From positions 29,896 through 93,895 of the forward strand of contig CAYMED010000006.1 in NCBI GenBank assembly GCA_964389655.1: a stretch of DNA of 64,000 bases. Direction: 5' to 3'. The DNA comes from an uncultured Candidatus Poseidoniales archaeon. Its GTDB lineage: Archaea; Thermoplasmatota; Poseidoniia; Poseidoniales; CAYMED01. Both the position numbers and the translations under genes were made by a program. The notes beneath the pieces were generated by a model. That model worked only from the letters and a program-made list of their open reading frames with translations, was not told where the DNA came from and ran no database searches. Shown here piece by piece: positions 8,480-18,390 of the stretch (positions are counted from its first letter, which is position 1; the number at the start of each line of letters is the position of its first letter).

Positions 8480-9160
8480 TCATGATATCTCTTCATCCAT
8501 GGAGGACCAAACCATAACCTGATTTTGCCCAATAATTGATGACTCAACCAACTGCAAGCCACTAGAGTTCCATGTGCTGAGGCGGCGCTCAAGATCAACT
8601 AGGACATGGTATCGCTCTGCAAGAGTACCATTGGGTAATTGCCATGTAACCCAAGCCACGTCACCATCCCAACGCACGTTTTTAGGGGAATTTGGAGCCC
8701 AACAAGTAACATATATTCTTCCCCTTGGACGTAACAACCTTTTAGCTTCTGAAAGAGCAATAACTCCCTCATTCAAAGGAAGGTGGTGTAATGTCGCTAC
8801 ACAAAGAATTGCGTCGAAGGAAGAATCATCCCAAGGCATATTTCGTATATCACACACAAGTGGAGTAACTGAGGGGTGGGCAAGTTGCGCAAGCGCCACC
8901 ATTTTGGGGCTCAAATCACATGCTTCAACGCGATGCCCTGCACTCAATCCAATTCCAATATGCCTGCCACTTCCACACCCTGCAATCAAAAGGTCGACTG
9001 ATTTTGGAAGTTGATGGAGCCAGTCTACTACATGCGACCAAGGCTTGTTTCTTCGTTGGCTAAAATCATCCGCTATTTGGTCCCAAGTACGCTGCACGCT
9101 CTCAATGCCCGGAAATGATTGGTCTCCGGAGTCACGGGCCCGGGGCTCCAAATTGCTCAC
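8480..9160 (-). CDS. Class I SAM methyltransferase, Trm9/ALKBH8-like tRNA (carboxymethyluridine) methyltransferase
   Basis: WDQIADDFSQRRNKPW resembles the Trm9 Y..IA.HFS.TR.KPW signature; GCGSGR motif I; ATLHHL; RYH near the C-terminus. Confidence 0.8.
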   Translation of the reverse strand: MSNLEPRARDSGDQSFPGIESVQRTWDQIADDFSQRRNKPWSHVVDWLHQLPKSVDLLIAGCGSGRHIGIGLSAGHRVEACDLSPKMVALAQLAHPSVTPLVCDIRNMPWDDSSFDAILCVATLHHLPLNEGVIALSEAKRLLRPRGRIYVTCWAPNSPKNVRWDGDVAWVTWQLPNGTLAERYHVLVDLERRLSTWNSSGLQLVESSIIGQNQVMVWSSMDEEIS

Positions 9161-9221: not shown

Positions 9222-9524
9222 ATGATTGAACGAGTGATTCACTCCTTGACGCGACTTGAAGGCGTTCTAGATGCACGTGTTGTAAATATGCATGAAGTCA
9301 ATGAATTGAGTACTCAAACGGCCATCTGCGCTGAAGACCTAGTCAAATCCTCCACAGATAGTGAATGGGTTGATGGCTGGATTGAAACAAAGGAAAAGAA
9401 AATCAGCATGCGAAGAATACACGGTGGCCGCACATTGTGGATTGAAAGCACAACGGCACTAGCAACTGGACGGATACTCCACCACCTTCAGCGCTCTGCT
9501 GCATTAATTGAAGAAATCATATGA
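9222..9524 (+). CDS. Roadblock/LC7 (MglB-like) domain protein
   Basis: MIERVIHSLTRLEGVLDARVV...WIETKEKKISMRRI...TLWIES..LATGRILHHLQRSAALI fits the Roadblock pattern; ATG 9222 lies inside ORF 9045..9524; abuts the next gene. Confidence 0.7.
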   Translation: MIERVIHSLTRLEGVLDARVVNMHEVNELSTQTAICAEDLVKSSTDSEWVDGWIETKEKKISMRRIHGGRTLWIESTTALATGRILHHLQRSAALIEEII

Positions 9525-12500
9525 GTGAGTGATATGTTTAGCATGCCAACTGGCAAAATTGTCCCACGAGACACTGATTTGTCGATTGAAGTAACACAAA
9601 TGCCATTTGACCACGGAGCAATTACTCATACAACCAATAGGGGGAGGAAGATAATTGCGCATCGGATTATTGCTGATGGAAAAGTTGTTGCTTGTATTGC
9701 AAATAGCGATTCAAAGACTGAAAATGTATATCTTGTTGGCGAGAGGGCAATAAGAAGGCTAACCCACATTGCACGTGATGGTAAACTTAATTCACGCGGT
9801 GTTATATGGACCCAAGCACAAGTTGAACTCGTACTTCGTAGGTTTCCCGACGCAATTATCGATAGAAGGAGGGTTCGGGGACTTGTCCTTGAAGATGACC
9901 CATTTTCGCACATAGAAGCAAGAGACCTAGCAGCACTAACGCGTGAAATCGCTGATAGGCCTGCGGTAATTGCTGCATTATCAGTAGAGTCAGGAATTGT
10001 AATCGAACATGCAGGAAGCCTCCCTCAATCCCCTGATGAAGCCGCTTCTGGGATTCAAGCCATGGTTGATGCATTTGATTCAGGGGTGGAAAAGGCACCC
10101 ATTGATGTTCCACGCACATATATAATTGGAGGTAATGAGGCCACAATTGCCTTATTACGCGAAGGAAGTGCTAGCCTCGTACTATGGGTTCAACCGGGAA
10201 TGGATCCATCTGCAATTCTAGCAAATGCGTCAGCAGTATTGAGAATGACCCCCCCACCAGTTGAAGATTTAGTAGAGTTGGAAAGTTTGCCAAAAGGGAT
10301 TGAAGTTACGAGGAAAAAAGGAGGTGTTGAATCACTTATCCGCCTTCTAGATCAAGCTGCAGAAATCGAGGTTTCAGGAGCAATTGTTGCAAGAACGCCA
10401 GAACGTAATGCTGTCAGCCTTCTACTCGTTGGAGGGGTCCCAAGGGCACTCCATGGAGCACAAGACCTAGAGACTGGGTTACAAAAAATGACGGATTCTG
10501 CTGCAAATTTGGTTATTGAAAGAATTGATGGGGTGGCACGTCTCGCACTAGTTGCAGAAACAAGTGAAAACTTTGATTTACAAAATCTTCTCGAAATGCT
10601 CCCCTCTACACGAACAAAACGTGAAGACAAGATTAAACTGAGGCGGGCTTTACTAGAAGAAATCATTGGTTTCCATGTAGGAATTGAGCGCCTTGATCGT
10701 GCCCGAACAAGTTGGAAACAAGCAGAATTGTCGGGATTGCCAGTAATGGTCCCAATGGAGCAAAATGATGGGGAAAAATCGCTTTTGATCGCTGATAAAA
10801 CCGAAGAAAAAGTGCGGCTGGAAGAAGAATTAGTTGGCCTAGAACGCACAGTAGCTCGCAAAGACCGGCGCCTGAACGAGGCATCTGCAACTCATACTCG
10901 TTTACGAGAGGAAACCGATGTCCTGCGAGATGAAATGGCATCATCTAAAGATAGAGCAATTCAATTAGAGCAAGAATTAGAATTAAGCAGGGCTGCTACA
11001 AAGCAGGCTGAAAGCGCTGAAGAAGAAGCACAAAAACGTAATGAGCGCTTGGCAAGGCGTGTTTCTGAGTTAGAATTAGCTGTCGCTGAACGTGTTGAAG
11101 AAGTCGCGAAGGCAATTGCTGGTGCGGGATCTGCCGAAGAATTGGGTCGGACAATTGACCGTATGGCGCGAGAGGAAGCAGAATTGCGAGCCGACGTTCG
11201 TGGACTTGAAGAAAACCTCAGAGACCTAACCTTAGCAAATGATTCTGCTGAGCGCCTGCATAGGGTGCTTGATGAACAAATAGAAAGTACAAGAAATCGG
11301 TTACGCGTATCTGGTGCCGAACTTGATGAAGCACTAGCCCGTTCGGATGGGGCAAGAGGAGATCTAGAAGTTCTAGAAGCAGAGATTGTAGCACTTCGAC
11401 GGAGACACGGGGATGAAATAAATGCAATACGTGACCTTGAAATAAGGTCCGCGCACATTCAGAATGATTTGCGCGATTTACTTGAACAAAGACGAGTACT
11501 CCTACGTGAAATCGGTGATATTGAAGCGAGGCGCAGTAGAGAGGGGGCTGAATTACGAAGCCTTATTGAAGAAAGTAAAAACATTACAGATGCTCATGAA
11601 GAAGCCTTGCGAGATATTTCAGAGGCTGAGAGGCTTCGAAGCAAACTTCTTGATGAGCCTTTGGGGCAAGCACTGCTTGGAGCAGATCATGGCTTTGCAG
11701 CACTATCTCCCGTCCTTCAGCGGATTGATGAGTCGCGTCAACGAGGATACAGCATTGTTTTGCTAGATAGAGCAGTAGAAAGAGGGCTTCGTGTAATTCA
11801 AGCAACAGTGGATGAGGTAGCAAGCACCCCCCGCAACCTTTTGGCACGTGAAGTGCTAGAACTTCTAGAAACGCAGGCGCCTGAAACTGCTGGTGCAGTA
11901 CGCGGCCTTACGCGATGGTCGGTGCAAAATAGGTTACAATATCGTCTAGGAGAATGTGTGCAGTTAGTTGTCCTAGAAATTGAGGCAATTCTGGATGAAT
12001 ATGACGAAGCAATCACGATGTTACGAAGATTGAATGGAGTTATTGCTGAATTAGCACGCCTCGGAACATCTGAAGATATTCTTCACCCCCTAGAAGGAGC
12101 AACACATCGCCCAGAAGTGCTACCCATTATCGCGCGTCGTGTCCGAGAGCATGTGCAACGTGCATTGGATCGAATATATCTCGACGCTGATCGACAAGAT
12201 CGAGGAGAATTGGCATTAGACCAAACAGCTGATGCACTTGAAGCATTAATCGATCTGATGGATGCCAGTGGATTAACTGGTGAAATTCCCCCAGGCAGAC
12301 TATGGTCATTTCAGAGGTCTGGAATCCTGTCCTTCGAAGAATTATCACTCACTGAGCGAGAAAGACCACCAGTAGACATAGACATGGTAGAAGACATGCG
12401 TCCATTTATCGAAGGATTAGATGAATCATCACTTGAAGGCGTACGTGAACGTGCTAATGATGTTGGTCAACAAGAAACACCACGCATTGTGAGTGAAAAT

Positions 12501-12812
12501 GAGGATTTGACGACACAGATTGATGACAATCACTTAAACGGATGGGATGACCTAGGCCCACCAGATGATCGATTAGGCGTCGATGATGCATCTATTGCTA
12601 TGCCAAAAGCACCTGTCTCAGCAATTGCATCTGCTGAAGAACTAGATGAACTTGCACAACTCGACTCTGAAATAGATCGGCTTGATCGTGAAGCAAAAGA
12701 TAGAGTTCAAGAAGCATTAATGATTGACGAGTTTGAAGAATTACAGGAGGAAGAGGATGCGGATGAAGCAGTTGAGAACCTACGTTCTGACCTTGAGGAC
12801 ATCGATCTCTAA
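9525..12812 (+). CDS. Multidomain protein: DUF2226-like, Roadblock/LC7, DUF2226-like, long coiled coil, helical domain, acidic tail
   Basis: 1095 aa; MPTG..GKVVAC..GERAI..QVELV..FPDA and LPKG..SGAI..LLVGGVP are DUF2226-like; aa ~135-240 Roadblock-like; heptad-rich aa ~420-710; no Walker A. Confidence 0.8.
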   Translation: MSDMFSMPTGKIVPRDTDLSIEVTQMPFDHGAITHTTNRGRKIIAHRIIADGKVVACIANSDSKTENVYLVGERAIRRLTHIARDGKLNSRGVIWTQAQVELVLRRFPDAIIDRRRVRGLVLEDDPFSHIEARDLAALTREIADRPAVIAALSVESGIVIEHAGSLPQSPDEAASGIQAMVDAFDSGVEKAPIDVPRTYIIGGNEATIALLREGSASLVLWVQPGMDPSAILANASAVLRMTPPPVEDLVELESLPKGIEVTRKKGGVESLIRLLDQAAEIEVSGAIVARTPERNAVSLLLVGGVPRALHGAQDLETGLQKMTDSAANLVIERIDGVARLALVAETSENFDLQNLLEMLPSTRTKREDKIKLRRALLEEIIGFHVGIERLDRARTSWKQAELSGLPVMVPMEQNDGEKSLLIADKTEEKVRLEEELVGLERTVARKDRRLNEASATHTRLREETDVLRDEMASSKDRAIQLEQELELSRAATKQAESAEEEAQKRNERLARRVSELELAVAERVEEVAKAIAGAGSAEELGRTIDRMAREEAELRADVRGLEENLRDLTLANDSAERLHRVLDEQIESTRNRLRVSGAELDEALARSDGARGDLEVLEAEIVALRRRHGDEINAIRDLEIRSAHIQNDLRDLLEQRRVLLREIGDIEARRSREGAELRSLIEESKNITDAHEEALRDISEAERLRSKLLDEPLGQALLGADHGFAALSPVLQRIDESRQRGYSIVLLDRAVERGLRVIQATVDEVASTPRNLLAREVLELLETQAPETAGAVRGLTRWSVQNRLQYRLGECVQLVVLEIEAILDEYDEAITMLRRLNGVIAELARLGTSEDILHPLEGATHRPEVLPIIARRVREHVQRALDRIYLDADRQDRGELALDQTADALEALIDLMDASGLTGEIPPGRLWSFQRSGILSFEELSLTERERPPVDIDMVEDMRPFIEGLDESSLEGVRERANDVGQQETPRIVSENEDLTTQIDDNHLNGWDDLGPPDDRLGVDDASIAMPKAPVSAIASAEELDELAQLDSEIDRLDREAKDRVQEALMIDEFEELQEEEDADEAVENLRSDLEDIDL

Positions 12813-14109
12813 CAGGACGAGGAAATGGATCATCCCCCCATTGCTAGTTGTTCTAGCGATCAATTCTGTTTCCGCAATTGATGCAGATCTTGATGGATTT
12901 GAGTCTAACCGTGATATGAATGATATGAAAGATATGATACATTCAATGCCAAAAAAAGGATGGGATTCATCAATTTGGGCCGGTTCTTATGAGCAAATTT
13001 CCTCGTTTAATTCGAGTATAAATTCCATCGAAATCGGTGATATAAATGAAGATGGATTTATGGATTTAGCTCTTGCAATGGATGGTTATGATGTTATCCT
13101 ACCTGGCAAAAAAGATGGTTTTACATCCACCCCAATTTGGATTTCAAAAGATGATTCCATCACCGCTGATTTATCTATTGGAGACATAAATGGGGATGGT
13201 TATTTGGACCTTGTCCGTACTCGATACAATGCACCAGTGGTTGCTCATTTATCGAATAATGGAAACCTGCCAATAGAGCCGTCTTGGACAGACCAGAGTG
13301 GAGGGAACATGGGAACATTTGTAGATCTCGTAGATGTGGACGGGGATCTAGACCTAGATCTGCTGCTCGGCTTTGACCTCCAGTTAGACCGCCTAGTTCT
13401 AAATGAGAACGGGACATTATCTAATGAGATAAGTTGGAGTTCTACCGATTCAATACGTACCCGCGCAATGGCTGTTGCGGATTTGGATGGCGATGGGGAC
13501 TTGGAATTGGCAATCGCGCATGAAGATGGACCATTGCGGGTATACACGATGAATGCGAGGGGTGAGTGGAATCTCTCATGGTCTTCAGAGATCAAACACC
13601 ATGCCAGGGACCTCGCTTTTGTACCTAAAAAGACAAATGAGGAAATTTACCTTTTTGCTGCCATTTCAGGAATTACGCACGGGTACCGGGTTGATCAAAA
13701 ACTAGGGCTTGCCTATGATGATAAATTCCATGCTCCCTCATCGGACACGTTGGCATTTAGCGTAGTGGACCTTGATGGTGATGGGATGTTGGAAATTATT
13801 GAAGCAAATGCGGGAGGCATGAGCATATTAGAAGTCAGAGACGAGGGACTGAGAATGGAGTGGCACAGCAATGACTTCCCTGCAAATGACATTGAATTGT
13901 TCGATTTAGGAAATGATGGGGACCTTGACCTCATTTGGGCCTCTGATGAAAGAATAATGCTGATGGAACAAAAGCCGAGGTATGTCGAGCGATTTATTGC
14001 AGCATCCCCTGTAATAATTATTCTAGGTTTAACAATCACAATGGCCTTCATCCTACACAAGCGGGAAACGAATAAACTGGTTAAGTACACAAAAACGAAA
14101 GAGAAATGA
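12793..14109 (+). CDS. FG-GAP/VCBS repeat beta-propeller membrane protein
   Basis: Six DxxxDGxxD/E-type repeats (GDINEDGFMDL, GDINGDGYLDL, VDVDGDLDLDL, ADLDGDGDLEL, VDLDGDGMLEI, FDLGNDGDLDL); TTG 12793 gives a good signal peptide; C-terminal TM plus basic tail. Confidence 0.88.
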   Translation: MRTSISNRTRKWIIPPLLVVLAINSVSAIDADLDGFESNRDMNDMKDMIHSMPKKGWDSSIWAGSYEQISSFNSSINSIEIGDINEDGFMDLALAMDGYDVILPGKKDGFTSTPIWISKDDSITADLSIGDINGDGYLDLVRTRYNAPVVAHLSNNGNLPIEPSWTDQSGGNMGTFVDLVDVDGDLDLDLLLGFDLQLDRLVLNENGTLSNEISWSSTDSIRTRAMAVADLDGDGDLELAIAHEDGPLRVYTMNARGEWNLSWSSEIKHHARDLAFVPKKTNEEIYLFAAISGITHGYRVDQKLGLAYDDKFHAPSSDTLAFSVVDLDGDGMLEIIEANAGGMSILEVRDEGLRMEWHSNDFPANDIELFDLGNDGDLDLIWASDERIMLMEQKPRYVERFIAASPVIIILGLTITMAFILHKRETNKLVKYTKTKEK

Positions 14110-14119
14110 ATGGCGTGAT

Positions 14120-14401
14120 TTGATGAAAAAGTACCCTTTGTGGATTGAAAGGTCGGTCCTATTAACATTGTTAGCAATGACTGCATTTGCTGTTGGCAAA
14201 GCAGGCACCATCTTTGCATCAATTGCAACTGGATGCGGGGGGGTTCTAGTATCTCTAGTCATCACCGAAGCGATTGGAAGAAGAATTTACTCCAATTCAG
14301 CGGCGCCGAATGGGATTCATTTTCTCGAGGAATCCAAAGACACTTTGCCAAGGAACAACGAAGCGGAGAAGTGCAGCGGCTGCGAAGAAGAGGAGGGCTG
14401 A
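14120..14401 (+). CDS. Possible small two-TM membrane protein
   Basis: Follows the FG-GAP gene by 10 nt and has two hydrophobic segments, but its 3' end overlaps the opposite-strand gene by 105 nt. Confidence 0.4.
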   Translation: MMKKYPLWIERSVLLTLLAMTAFAVGKAGTIFASIATGCGGVLVSLVITEAIGRRIYSNSAAPNGIHFLEESKDTLPRNNEAEKCSGCEEEEG

Positions 14402-15526
14402 AATCACTAGGCCATAAGTCAATTCCAATTCAAGCGACTCTCCAAGTTGCAATGACCATTGACTCATAGGTAAACTCGATTGAACAAGATCAAGAAGAAT
14501 TTCATTGAAGCGCATGGAGATCATAGCAGCAATGGCTGCTATTGAGAAAAATCCTACTGTGTGCCAAAGATGGCCTGTGATCAAATTATCAAATTGACGA
14601 ACATATTCTGGATCCTTCTTGCATGCTTCAGGAAGCTTAAATGCATAATCAAGATAGCGAACTGCGCCATATCCGGATTCAATATATATCAAAAAGAATA
14701 CTGCAAATAGAACTAACTTAAACTGCTGTTCCCCGGCTAATCCAAGGCCAAACAAGGATATGTGGCTTGGATTATCAACTTGGCTATTCAAAGGCTGAAT
14801 GGGGAGTGATTGCCCGTTTTGAGATATAAGTGCAGTGATGAAATCCCAAGTAATTAAGGCATGAATTGTAAGAAGAAGAAGAAGAATGATGAAAGCTGAG
14901 CGAATTGATGAGCGACGAAGGCCCCAGATCCCCCTTGTGCCCAACCATACAGGAAGTGTGTACACCAATAAAACAATGAATTGCACAAATAATAAGAGGG
15001 GCCAAATCAAAGTGAGAGCCTCTTCTTCGGTTGGAGGGCGAAAGTTAGCATTCCCAAACGGCCATTGAATCAATTCCCATAGCATCACAAGCCCATATCC
15101 CATCAACAAACGACCAAGTAACAATAATAGGATTGTTATCGCAGTTATCATTCGAATTCGGCGCTTCCTTTTTTCTGTTTGAAAGCCTTTGACAGCAAGT
15201 GCATACCCATATATGGCAGCAAAAATAACTGGTCCAAGAAAAACTCCTTTGCCAACACCATTCATGCCAGAAAGCCATGCTGGAAGGGGAAGGCTTCTCT
15301 CACTCCCATCAATTGTATCTGCTTGATCATCAATTGTTTGGAGAAGGGTTGTATGCCCCATGAGGTCTGCTTGAGGAATGATATAAAGATCAACAAATAT
15401 GACAAACATCCAAATTAGTGATGCGGTCGCTACGCCCTGCAAAAGGAGAATTTGCCATGCTCTTCGCGTTTTATTGATGTGGAGGGTACGAGTTCCCTCT
15501 TGTTGAAGTGAGACCTCCTCTGCCAT
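14297..15526 (-). CDS. Polytopic membrane protein associated with the DUF58/DUF4350 cluster
   Basis: 409 aa with about 8 hydrophobic helices; 1-nt gap to the DUF58 gene. Confidence 0.82.
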   Translation of the reverse strand: MAEEVSLQQEGTRTLHINKTRRAWQILLLQGVATASLIWMFVIFVDLYIIPQADLMGHTTLLQTIDDQADTIDGSERSLPLPAWLSGMNGVGKGVFLGPVIFAAIYGYALAVKGFQTEKRKRRIRMITAITILLLLLGRLLMGYGLVMLWELIQWPFGNANFRPPTEEEALTLIWPLLLFVQFIVLLVYTLPVWLGTRGIWGLRRSSIRSAFIILLLLLTIHALITWDFITALISQNGQSLPIQPLNSQVDNPSHISLFGLGLAGEQQFKLVLFAVFFLIYIESGYGAVRYLDYAFKLPEACKKDPEYVRQFDNLITGHLWHTVGFFSIAAIAAMISMRFNEILLDLVQSSLPMSQWSLQLGESLELELTYGLVISALLFFAAAALLRFVVPWQSVFGFLEKMNPIRRR

Positions 15527-15527
15527 A

Positions 15528-16793
15528 TCAATAACCCCTCACTTGAAGCAATGCCTGAGAAAGATCCATGTCGGGATGCCAATCAATTACATGAGCACCA
15601 AATCCCGAAAGTGCAGTGAGGCGGTTATCGCGTTCTACCTTCATGACTTCATAGGACATTCGGGGAATACGGCTAACAAGACGTTCAAGATCCATGCTAG
15701 AAGGAGAAAGAATTGTGATGTCATGTTCCCTACCCGCCAAATCACGAACAGCATGGGGTACGGTTCCATCACCCTCAAGGCTGCTAATTAGGAAAATAGG
15801 AGATCCTCGGCTAAATCTCGCAGCCAGTGCGTTGGTAACTGCTTGAAGAGGCATGTTACCGCGCGGAGCAACGCCTGCAAGGCTGGATAATATCTTGAAA
15901 TATTGCTTATCCCCTGTATCTGGAGGAAGATAAGATAAATGATCATCATATATTGCCATAGCAACACTATCCCTTCTTTTCACAAAAAATGAGGCAAGTG
16001 ATGCCGCTGCAACACTCCCCATTTCAAGAGGGTTCTTCAATACAGTTCCAATTCGAGTCACGTCTCGACTATCAAGGATTATGAACACGTCTGTAACTGC
16101 GTCTCGACATTTTTCATTCACCATTAATTTCCCTGCACGGGCATAGGCTTTCCAATTGATGTTCTTAAATGGGTCTCCTGGCACATATTCCCGTAATGCA
16201 TAGAATTCAGTCCCTGGGCCAGGGGAACGAAGAACTGTAGCACCAGTATACATTTTTGGAACGTTACTCTTCACTAGGGCTTCTTCAACATCCCGTACTT
16301 TAGGAAAGACAATCAAATCAGAGCGGTGGTCGATAAAGCGCTCACTGGTAAACAAATGAAATGTATTTCTAAAGCGAAGACTCGTTGGCCCAATGCTATA
16401 GTGCCCGCGCAAAGGACATCGCACAGCATAACGAATGGAAGCGGTTTCACCTGGCCCAAGGTTTAGGCGCATTTGATTCAAGCCACTTTTCAATTTCATC
16501 TCATGTGGTATATTATCATACAATTCTAGATGGTGGGTTCGACGAAGGGACCGGTTGGTAATGCGAAGTTCAATGTATAAGTCATCTCCCTTGTACAGAT
16601 TATCTGCGGAAAGTGAACGGAGAACTTCTACATCGCCATGTCCCGAAAGCCACGAATTAACTACAAGAAATGAAATAAGCATTAAACCAATGATCATGAA
16701 TTGCTGATTTGAAATCATCATCCCGATTAAAAGCAATGCAATGCCGGATGTAAGATAGAAAGATGCTTTACGGGTCCACATTGCTTCCACCAC
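15528..16793 (-). CDS. DUF58 (vWA-like, MoxR-associated) protein
   Basis: N-terminal TM pair; RGHYSIGP; G.EFYALREYVPGDPFKNINWKAYAR.GKLMVNE; vWA-like ILD strand. Confidence 0.93.
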   Translation of the reverse strand: MVEAMWTRKASFYLTSGIALLLIGMMISNQQFMIIGLMLISFLVVNSWLSGHGDVEVLRSLSADNLYKGDDLYIELRITNRSLRRTHHLELYDNIPHEMKLKSGLNQMRLNLGPGETASIRYAVRCPLRGHYSIGPTSLRFRNTFHLFTSERFIDHRSDLIVFPKVRDVEEALVKSNVPKMYTGATVLRSPGPGTEFYALREYVPGDPFKNINWKAYARAGKLMVNEKCRDAVTDVFIILDSRDVTRIGTVLKNPLEMGSVAAASLASFFVKRRDSVAMAIYDDHLSYLPPDTGDKQYFKILSSLAGVAPRGNMPLQAVTNALAARFSRGSPIFLISSLEGDGTVPHAVRDLAGREHDITILSPSSMDLERLVSRIPRMSYEVMKVERDNRLTALSGFGAHVIDWHPDMDLSQALLQVRGY

Positions 16794-16794
16794 C

Positions 16795-18390
16795 TCAGGT
16801 TTTTCCCCATGCTTTGATGCGTTTGACTATAGCTACTGTTTGTTCAATCGAATAATCTCGATCCTCAAATACGAATTTCGTCAGAATTGGGTCTTCAATC
16901 ATCGTCGCTAAATCACGTGCAGGGAGAAGGTCAAACTCATCTCTAGTCAGACCGTTATTGTTTCGGACTTTTGAAAGAAATGTCGCACGTATTTTGGGAG
17001 TTTTGGCATAATATCCATATCGGTGTGAGTCACCAAATCCGTAGTAAATCACACTGAAAACATGCCGCCAATCCTCGGGGTCTCGTTTACGAATCATGAC
17101 GGCTTCAAGTGCAACAAAAAGGGCAAGGAAAAGTAATAGCATGGCCGTTTTATCTGAAGTAAAATAGACCATCAAATAATAGATGAAATTATACGAGTCT
17201 GCTAAGCCAAGTGGTGCTGGTTGGGCGTGCCTACTTTCTTCAAAAATGACTTGAGCGCCTTCTGGAACTGCTAAAACATCAAGATGGGCACTTCCAACAT
17301 CTAATTGCGAGATATTACGCCCCTCGACCAAAAGAGATTCGGCGATGAAGTCTAAAGCCCATATTCGATTGTCATTCACGGGTATTTGGCCCCCGTATTT
17401 ACCGCTATTTTGGCCATAAATTGCGTTAATGAGGAGGGATCCATCTGAAAGGAAAAAGATGCGGCCGGCGTTAGGTTGACTGCAATTACCATCGCAGCCT
17501 TCTATATAAAGGTCAAAAGGACCTTGTTTGTCGACAACTTGGCCGGGAAGTTCTGATTCCAAGACCAATTGCCCATCACCATTTACATCAAGATATGATT
17601 CCTGAGATGATTGTCCAATTGGTTCCATCGTCAGGGCAGCTGTTGGTTCAGTAGGTAGAAAACCAGAGGGTGTATTGAGAAGGATGTGAAATTCAGCATT
17701 ATACTCAATTTCGTTTGTTGTCGAATTCCATCGGTGTCGGCATAAGCCAGCATCCTCGGCAGACGTGACTGAAACATTGCTCCATTTCACACATGGATGA
17801 CTGCCATGCCACCTTTCGTGACCCACGAGGCCATCTGTTCCCGAAATATTCTCTGTGAGGTTCATCCAAGTAAAATTTGAATCTAATTCATGGGCCCATT
17901 CTTCATCGAATAAGCGCTGGCCCGAATAATCTACTCCAAATGCCACACCTAAGCTTGAAGCAAAACCATAATCTTCCATAACCAGCACGCTCCCACCCCT
18001 AGCAACAAAGCCAATTATTGCATTTATCTCAGAAGTTGAGTAACCCTGTCCCCCAGACAATGAAGAAGTACTAATTCCTGTGCTCCCAAAAGAAGGGATG
18101 TCAACGGCATCTCGTTCAAGTCCTGCAATAATCACAACAGTATGGGATGGGTCATCCACATCTTCCAATAATAACGGACTTGAAACAAGAGATTTTGTGG
18201 GTATTCCAAGGTCATTTAGTTCTTCTCTAAATTCAGATAGATCATCCCAATCATCACCATAAGCAGAGAGTTGACTAGGAATCGGGCGAAGATAAGTACT
18301 CAGCAAGGAGCCAAGCAGTAAGAGGAGAGATGCATAAAACGCACCTACTATGATTATGCGTCGAAATCGGCGCCTTGAACGTCGAGCCAT
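16795..18390 (-). CDS. DUF4350-like (GATase/ABC-uncharacterised fold) membrane protein
   Basis: N-terminal TM; QLSAYGDDWDDLSEF; YSTSEINAIIGFVARGGSVLVMEDYG; GRIFFLSDGSLLIN; C-terminal TM. Confidence 0.8.
   Translation of the reverse strand: MARRSRRRFRRIIIVGAFYASLLLLLGSLLSTYLRPIPSQLSAYGDDWDDLSEFREELNDLGIPTKSLVSSPLLLEDVDDPSHTVVIIAGLERDAVDIPSFGSTGISTSSLSGGQGYSTSEINAIIGFVARGGSVLVMEDYGFASSLGVAFGVDYSGQRLFDEEWAHELDSNFTWMNLTENISGTDGLVGHERWHGSHPCVKWSNVSVTSAEDAGLCRHRWNSTTNEIEYNAEFHILLNTPSGFLPTEPTAALTMEPIGQSSQESYLDVNGDGQLVLESELPGQVVDKQGPFDLYIEGCDGNCSQPNAGRIFFLSDGSLLINAIYGQNSGKYGGQIPVNDNRIWALDFIAESLLVEGRNISQLDVGSAHLDVLAVPEGAQVIFEESRHAQPAPLGLADSYNFIYYLMVYFTSDKTAMLLLFLALFVALEAVMIRKRDPEDWRHVFSVIYYGFGDSHRYGYYAKTPKIRATFLSKVRNNNGLTRDEFDLLPARDLATMIEDPILTKFVFEDRDYSIEQTVAIVKRIKAWGKT

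Follow-up and report, generated by a model that had tools for sequence, protein, structure and literature searches.

This work concerns a group of genes at positions 9222-14401 of a 64,000-nucleotide stretch of DNA (hereafter the window), which belongs to contig 6 of a 2.1-Mb archaeal metagenome-assembled genome (MAG) that is 93% complete and comes from an uncultured Candidatus Poseidoniales archaeon. Three of these genes constitute a conserved unit specific to Poseidoniales. They code for a small Roadblock/LC7 protein, a large protein that bears a second Roadblock domain ahead of a coiled coil, and a small protein with two transmembrane (TM) segments. The co-inherited core of the unit is the first two of these, with about 100-115 aa in the small protein and about 1,050-1,100 aa in the large, cytoplasmic one. 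The association of Roadblock/LC7 domains with small GTPases and motors is an ancient one. By analogy with known assemblies, we tentatively read the two Roadblock proteins as a GTPase-independent platform on a coiled-coil scaffold whose guessed client is a type IV filament motor, an interpretation that we place somewhat short of an even chance.

The features of the locus are listed below by position in the window; amino acid (aa) ranges refer to the large protein, and AF2 stands for AlphaFold2 models.

9222-9524, + strand: small Roadblock/LC7 protein P0001, 100 aa, ATG start at 9222 with GAGG before it
9525/9534-12812, + strand: large scaffold protein P0002, 1095 aa if the GTG at 9525 is the start
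9525-9899, + strand: head domain D1 of P0002, aa 1-125, from the AF2 model
9915-10262, + strand: embedded Roadblock/LC7 domain D2, aa 131-246, from fold and sequence
10278-10724, + strand: head domain D3, aa 252-400, from the AF2 model
10785-11666, + strand: coiled-coil stalk, aa ~421-714, from composition, heptads and AF2
11625-12419, + strand: all-helical C-terminal domain, aa ~700-965, from conservation and AF2
12420-12809, + strand: acidic disordered linker (aa ~966-1036), then a C-terminal amphipathic helix, from AF2 and composition
12757-14109, + strand: FG-GAP beta-propeller surface protein P0003, from its FG-GAP_3 match
14123-14401, + strand: small 2-TM protein P0004, from motifs common to orthologous loci

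Distribution, gene order and loss of the unit

An earlier note on this DNA had proposed an operon of four co-oriented genes. All four open reading frames (ORFs) are present on the + strand, as seen in the ORF listing and in translation. The proposed gene order is conserved for the small, large and 2-TM genes and breaks down for the FG-GAP gene, since no FG-GAP homologue occurs at any of 27 orthologous loci or of 80 further Poseidoniales loci, the latter being those listed of 287 matching loci among species-level genomes.

Orthologues of the large protein, 33-51% identical and 1,040-1,105 aa long, were found in 28 of 40 relatives, and the protein is present in 50 of the 69 Poseidoniales genomes with a completeness of 90% or more. 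In one family all genomes carry it (42/42), in the other 7 of 26. The gene is single-copy in every genome except one, G190. In the species-level genomes, the loci are labelled Poseidoniales, Poseidoniaceae, Poseidonia or Thalassarchaeaceae, and the 80 listed loci all come from Poseidoniales or from unplaced archaeal MAGs, save one labelled Verrucomicrobiales. In the 26-27 loci that were read closely, a gene of 100-125 aa ends a few bases before the start of the large gene and a gene of 66-116 aa opens 0-20 nucleotides (nt) past its stop, with spacings within the unit that are either gaps of 0-20 nt or overlaps of 4 nt. Of the 80 further loci, 73 could be scored for the small gene, which is the immediate upstream neighbour in 72 of them, and 75 for the 2-TM gene, which follows immediately downstream in 73; the exceptional loci still have a profile match nearby, just past the distance window of our script. 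The tight coupling of the Roadblock pair is, in this sense, order-wide, and the fourth gene, at first only a possible 2-TM protein, is real and conserved in position. Two motifs of P0004, 'YPLWIER' and 'TEAIGR', are common to the downstream genes of at least 24 loci.

A few records depart from this pattern. The locus filed as a 'Verrucomicrobiales bacterium' MAG (L110, NZEQ01000033.1) encodes a Poseidoniales large protein at 45% identity and is likely a case of binning contamination. Two relatives, one of them a single-contig genome, carry a large gene with one in-frame TGA (G003:C1:1853104-1855983 and G004:C27:10666-13872, L005), for which a sequencing error, pseudogenisation or recoding could account. 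In G190 the large gene occurs twice, in nearly identical form, on separate contigs (G190:C8:10080-11285 and G190:C4:2355-3560); this may reflect a gene duplication or an artefact of assembly or binning.

Four genera lack the large gene. Their flanks are intact, with DUF4350, DUF58 and a protein with eight TM segments (8-TM) on one side and Ncs6 on the other (PyrI/PyrB lie beside Ncs6 in three of the four), and precisely the Roadblock and large genes are gone. A diverged 2-TM gene persists in the interval of about 400 bp (E 7e-11 to 4e-7). These genera form one clade in the trees of Ncs6 (100/99) and of the 8-TM protein (99), and their streamlined genomes are small, 1.3-1.6 Mb. Because all pair-lacking genera fall in a single clade, the two genes were lost once, and together, in a lineage of small genomes; the wider sample of 69 near-complete genomes contains no independent loss. 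From the joint loss it follows that the small and large genes are one unit, and from the retention of the 2-TM gene that the latter does not depend on the pair. A single loss event also implies that every other gene dropped in that lineage will match the distribution of the pair without need of any further link.

The 8-TM protein (409 aa, no Pfam match), DUF58 and DUF4350 form a convergent cluster at 14297-18390 (- strand) of the window, and their synteny is kept in every locus long enough (L013-L029, L037-L040). Branches of the 8-TM protein measure 0.49-1.57 in the pair-lacking clade versus a median of 0.08, which could reflect relaxed constraint or simply faster evolution in streamlined genomes.

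The FG-GAP propeller had been placed inside the system, and its identity is solid. FG-GAP_3 (PF13517) matches P0003 at 8e-27 in six stretches and FG-GAP (PF01839) at 2.2e-13 in four, and the signal-like N-terminus and C-terminal TM segment described earlier as signal peptide and anchor are both visible in the sequence. The gene also sits inside the operon here, overlapping the 3′ end of the large gene and lying 10-13 nt upstream of the 2-TM gene. These observations would agree with a four-gene system that couples the Roadblock scaffold to an integrin-like FG-GAP protein and connects adhesion to the cytoskeleton. However, the propeller is missing from all 27 and 80 other loci, and in other genomes the 2-TM gene comes directly after the large gene. 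The local 2-TM copy, moreover, is without the conserved N-terminal 'TTL.GREE' and has a C-terminal extension instead, which we read as remodelling by the FG-GAP insertion. Adhesion coupling is largely refuted as a general system, and we regard it as highly improbable. Because no homologue occurs at the other loci and the 2-TM gene adjoins the large gene there, the FG-GAP gene is a lineage-specific later insertion outside the conserved module, and its annotation is corrected to that of an unrelated protein. The C-terminal extension of the local 2-TM protein is rich in Cys and Glu and lacking in other genomes; owing to it, the 2-TM gene runs 105 nt into the 3′ end of the convergent 8-TM gene (14297-14401).

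A methyltransferase gene (8480-9160, - strand) lies between Ncs6 and the Roadblock gene in the window. It is absent from this position in the other loci searched, including locus L002 of the same genus, and is a second local insertion beside the module.

Start codons refine the local spacings. Translation from the ATG at 9534 gives the large protein the N-terminus 'MF.(L/M)P.G' that is invariant among its orthologues, and this codon is likely the true start. The gap between the small and large genes is, on account of that match, probably 9 nt; the gap of 0 nt reported earlier applies only if the GTG at 9525 is used. For the FG-GAP gene the candidates are an ATG at 12757, preceded by GGAGG, and a TTG at 12793, and the former may be the start; for the 2-TM gene they are 14120 and 14123, of which the ATG at 14123 is most likely.

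Architecture of the two Roadblock proteins

P0001 alone has no Pfam match at E <= 1. When all frames of the window are searched with a profile of its orthologues from which it was left out, it is matched at E 6.8e-8. It is a divergent, slightly shortened member of a family of 100-125 aa proteins and carries a short deletion that falls between strand 1 and helix 2. PF03259 (Robl_LC7) is matched by 16 of 24 orthologues (best 4.8e-7). The family profile matches the Thorarchaeota Roadblock 7f8m at 1.3e-7, in an alignment that spans positions 3-106 of the 112 profile positions, as well as Prometheoarchaeum 7yh1 (7.3e-5) and MglC 7ct3 (3.9e-4); all three matches take in nearly the whole length of the profile. 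Judged from these profile matches, the small protein is a member of the Roadblock/LC7 family, as first suspected.

The head of the large protein was modelled from 24 orthologues (residues 1-410; mean predicted local distance difference test, pLDDT, 83.8; predicted template modelling score 0.76) and consists of three domains, a small alpha/beta domain D1, the Roadblock domain D2 and another small alpha/beta domain D3. The second Roadblock-like domain that had been proposed inside this protein is borne out by both fold and sequence. In the model, D2 shows the Roadblock order of secondary-structure elements and matches MP1/p14, MglB, LAMTOR and Asgard Roadblocks with a Foldseek probability of 1.0. 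At the sequence level, D2 of 4 of the 24 orthologues matches PF03259 (best 1.9e-5), the D2 profile matches CvnB5 (3leq) at 0.0024, and the sole matches outside the family in an exhaustive profile search of 1.84 billion representatives were three proteins that are themselves Robl_LC7.

D1 is predicted to contain three to four beta-strands, a helix and a strand followed by helices (pLDDT mostly 83-94), and D3 a beta-alpha-beta-beta-beta-alpha-beta order with a long helix that runs into the coiled coil. In the exhaustive search, neither had detectable relatives beyond Poseidoniales. Both had been labelled DUF2226/PATAN-like modules, an assignment that is unproven: every test with hidden Markov models (HMMs) was negative. 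Neither PatA_N nor DUF2226 was matched in Pfam by the whole protein or by the 24 orthologue heads, the two HMMs found nothing in a six-frame search of this genome, and neither PF14332 (PatA_N) nor PF09987 (DUF2226) scored above cut-off in 151 genomes of the phylum. A comparison of D1 with D3 by hhalign detected no relation (E 0.11 and 0.23 with default and permissive settings). Language-model scores stay below the 0.9 level for D1 (0.84-0.85 to PatA_N and DUF2226 clusters) and for D3 (0.83 to the DUF2226 cluster, 0.82 to the PatA_N cluster). By shape, D3 finds one PatA_N cluster at a template modelling score of 0.52. Both domains, moreover, open with 'LP.G' and have a 'G..VG..A' strand pattern. 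The language-model, shape and motif likenesses are weak leads in favour of the first label, all of them below the level where chance matches stop.

The remainder of the protein corresponds well to its first description as a coiled coil of about 300 residues, a helical domain and an acidic tail, with no Walker motif. Residues ~421-714 are poor in proline and glycine, consist to 60-71% of E/R/K/Q/L/A and show heptad periodicity with z up to 3.6; in the AF2 model this stalk of about 290 residues is a long helix. A second model, from the stalk to the terminal helix, has a pLDDT of 78.6. Residues ~700-965 are the best conserved part of the protein and form a confidently predicted helical domain, for which the Pfam search returned nothing better than E 0.0059, the sequence search of the PDB only FliS at 0.064, and Foldseek against solved structures a best E of 0.24. 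Residues 956-1095 hold 46 D/E versus 11 K/R. The pLDDT is below 50 in the acidic linker and 74-91 in the terminal helix (1037-1092), whose motif '...L..LE..LS.LD(L/F)' is kept in 24 of 24 aligned orthologues. We tried and rejected a MIM1-like reading of the helix 'D..L..LE..LS.LD(L/F)', as its heptad spacing would suit any amphipathic helix and it does not match MIM1 in the Arg/Leu core. Public copies of the large protein are all titled "hypothetical protein".

In three genomes of genus g98 in Poseidoniaceae (G180, G181 and G182), the C-terminal profile matches only up to position 280/299 of 402 (from position 1), and one of the large-protein ORFs has 1231 aa. Because the match stops there, the tail and terminal helix have been remodelled in this genus.

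A long coiled coil may also serve cytoskeletal or chromosome organisation, in a role like that of SMC, EzrA or CdvA, with the Roadblock head as a dimerisation or regulatory module only. The weak similarity to SMC (TIGR02168, E 5.7e-4) points in this direction, as does the conservation of a single-copy gene (G190 apart) across the order, and the acidic tail with its terminal helix would resemble the partner-binding tails of division proteins. On the other side, the TIGR02168 match covers the coiled-coil region only and reaches 17.7 bits versus a cut-off of 567, and the protein has no Walker A motif and lacks the ABC-type ATPase head of SMC proteins, with Walker A/B on either side of the coiled coil. 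An entire clade of free-living Poseidoniales lacks the protein, which disfavours an essential part in division or segregation. We consider such a role improbable.

GTPases, filament motors and the proposed mechanism

The earlier note saw no cognate GTPase in the window, and a search of the genomes extends this observation. The Ras and Arf HMMs (PF00071, PF00025), which were positive in all 14 control genomes, gave no match at E <= 0.1 in this genome, and no convincing Ras/Arf GTPase was found in 40 relatives, most of them more than 90% complete. Marginal matches, in ORFs of about 370 aa and in one of 677 aa, occurred in 7 of the 41 genomes searched. Since no Ras-like GTPase was found in these genomes, P0001 and P0002 are orphans as Wuichet and Sogaard-Andersen (PMC4316618) understood the term; these authors counted 328 uncoupled MglB homologues, none characterised as of 2014.

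A second stand-alone Roadblock-like ORF, of 143 aa ('...LLQDLAAVDGIIATLITDQEGLI...'), exists on G000 contig 18 (L030:1309-1740, - strand), with a weak Robl_LC7 match (E 0.02). Its neighbours, judged by eye and without a profile scan, are an acetyltransferase-like ORF and a coiled-coil-like ORF of 276 aa, with no GTPase-like ORF among them.

It is nonetheless conceivable that the pair is a classical MglB-like platform with GTPase-activating or nucleotide-exchange function, whose small GTPase has its gene elsewhere, either diverged beyond recognition or missing from the assembly. Small GTPases are the usual targets of Roadblock dimers, examples being MglB-MglA, Ragulator-Rag and the conservon (PMC4316618); the best structural match of D2 is MglB, and this genome is only 93% complete. 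Against such a partner stand the empty search of this genome with HMMs that detect GTPases in 14 of 14 controls, the marginal nature of the matches among relatives, and the fact that orphan MglB homologues are already common. We think a hidden GTPase unlikely. Because none was found, the platform that we propose probably acts without one.

Roadblock domains work as dimers, in platforms such as MglB, MglB-MglC and LAMTOR2/3. For this reason, the small protein is expected to pair with, or to stack on, the embedded domain D2. A complex prediction for the head (aa 1-410) with the small protein scored 0.22, where the mark is 0.32, and so counts neither for nor against binding. We hypothesize that a platform resembling Ragulator or MglB/MglC would form at the head of a dimer made by the coiled coil, that a partner or an anchor would dock on the C-terminal domain and the terminal helix, and that the assembly as a whole would be a positioning or regulatory scaffold for a client.

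As to the client, our best guess, offered as speculation, is a type IV filament motor. PATAN domains bind PilB1/PilC (bioRxiv 10.1101/2021.06.11.447907), and PATAN genes are found near mglB homologues (PMC4316618). This genome has three T2SSE ATPase loci, two of them type IV pilus-like and the third that of the archaellum. One locus on G000 contig 8 (L045:6599-9190) holds a 414-aa T2SSE ATPase and two T2SSF proteins, and one on G000 contig 1 (L046:8024-12151) a 509-aa T2SSE ATPase, two T2SSF proteins and two small ORFs. The two ATPase genes lie at G000:C8:27945-29189 and G000:C1:68023-69552, and that of the archaellum is on C12. Both pilus-type T2SSE classes are absent from the pair-lacking clade, and the class of about 415 aa and the pair occur in an identical set of 29 of the 41 genomes.

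Several observations weigh against the platform and its proposed client. The agreement between the T2SSE class and the pair is the outcome of a single loss event and carries no statistical weight, because the pair-lacking genera form one clade. A strict link to the archaellum was rejected, since the distribution of archaellin (PF01917) differs from that of the pair: g2, g4, g15 and G001 encode the pair and gave no archaellin match, and in g13 the reverse holds. The functional step to filament motors is one of analogy. D1 and D3 do draw the same ESM-Atlas clusters, some with 31-51% PatA_N/DUF2226 members, at language-model scores of 0.82-0.88, a range that shuffled proteins also reach; 40 isolated D1/D3 segments gave one DUF2226 match, at E 0.11, and none to PatA_N. 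For the C-terminal domain, no relative could be recognised that would point to a partner. Survival of the 2-TM gene where the pair is gone weakens the idea of a dedicated membrane anchor. Finally, at 93% completeness a GTPase could be encoded on the missing DNA.

The most far-reaching form of our proposal is that a GTPase-free Roadblock heterodimer, mounted on a coiled-coil scaffold whose output domain is helical and new, would serve as a landmark by which type IV filament motors (pili, archaellum) or another membrane machine are positioned or gated; in this full form we hold it to be rather unlikely. If true, this would make it the first 'orphan' Roadblock system to be characterised and show that an ancient fold can act without a GTPase. 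Marine Group II archaea belong to the most abundant archaea of the surface ocean and are still uncultured, and to our knowledge almost nothing is known of their cell biology. GTPase-free action would in itself widen the known repertoire of the Roadblock fold and would offer a way into the control of polarity or surface filaments in this ecologically dominant group. Whatever its client, the pair is a clean orphan case, order-wide, co-inherited and co-lost, with one Roadblock domain within a scaffold of about 1,090 residues. The first observation of this locus was largely right; it erred on the boundary of the system at the FG-GAP gene, and its labels for D1 and D3 are those left unproven.

Comparison with known systems

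The Roadblock fold and orphan Roadblock genes are already known. As far as the literature searched shows, no description exists of the architecture of about 1,090 residues, of its confinement to Poseidoniales, of the new C-terminal domain or of the GTPase-free setting. Publications that join Roadblock with Poseidoniales are, by title and abstract, general reviews only, and DUF2226 found no mention in the literature searched.

The order of secondary-structure elements in D3 may recall that of PATAN. No HMM of PATAN (PF14332) or DUF2226 (PF09987) matches the whole protein, the head or the isolated domains. FrzS and AglZ of Myxococcus, which combine a small globular regulatory head (a receiver domain) with a long coiled coil and organise motility machines at the pole, share the general plan of the large protein; they have a receiver where the large protein has a Roadblock head, and there is no sequence relation.

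Archaeal stand-alone Roadblocks from Thorarchaeota (7f8m) and Prometheoarchaeum (7yh1, 9jue) are the best profile matches of the small protein and are of like size. Those Asgard genomes are rich in small GTPases, whereas the Poseidoniales protein is locked in an operon with a giant scaffold. MglB and MglC of Myxococcus xanthus (6hjm, 6h5b, 7ct3) show only 14-18% sequence identity, and they differ in setting, since here no MglA-like GTPase was found and one Roadblock domain is buried in a coiled-coil protein of 1,090 aa.

Ragulator (LAMTOR2/3, LAMTOR4/5) and MP1-p14 are the top Foldseek matches of D2 (E 5.6e-6). Ragulator is eukaryotic, acts on Rag GTPases and is anchored by LAMTOR1; the Poseidoniales pair, on the other hand, has no Rag-like proteins and a coiled-coil scaffold, and its heterodimer is putative only. 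Ragulator and MP1-p14 provide a precedent for the arrangement proposed here, in that two different Roadblock proteins pair into a platform held by a scaffold.

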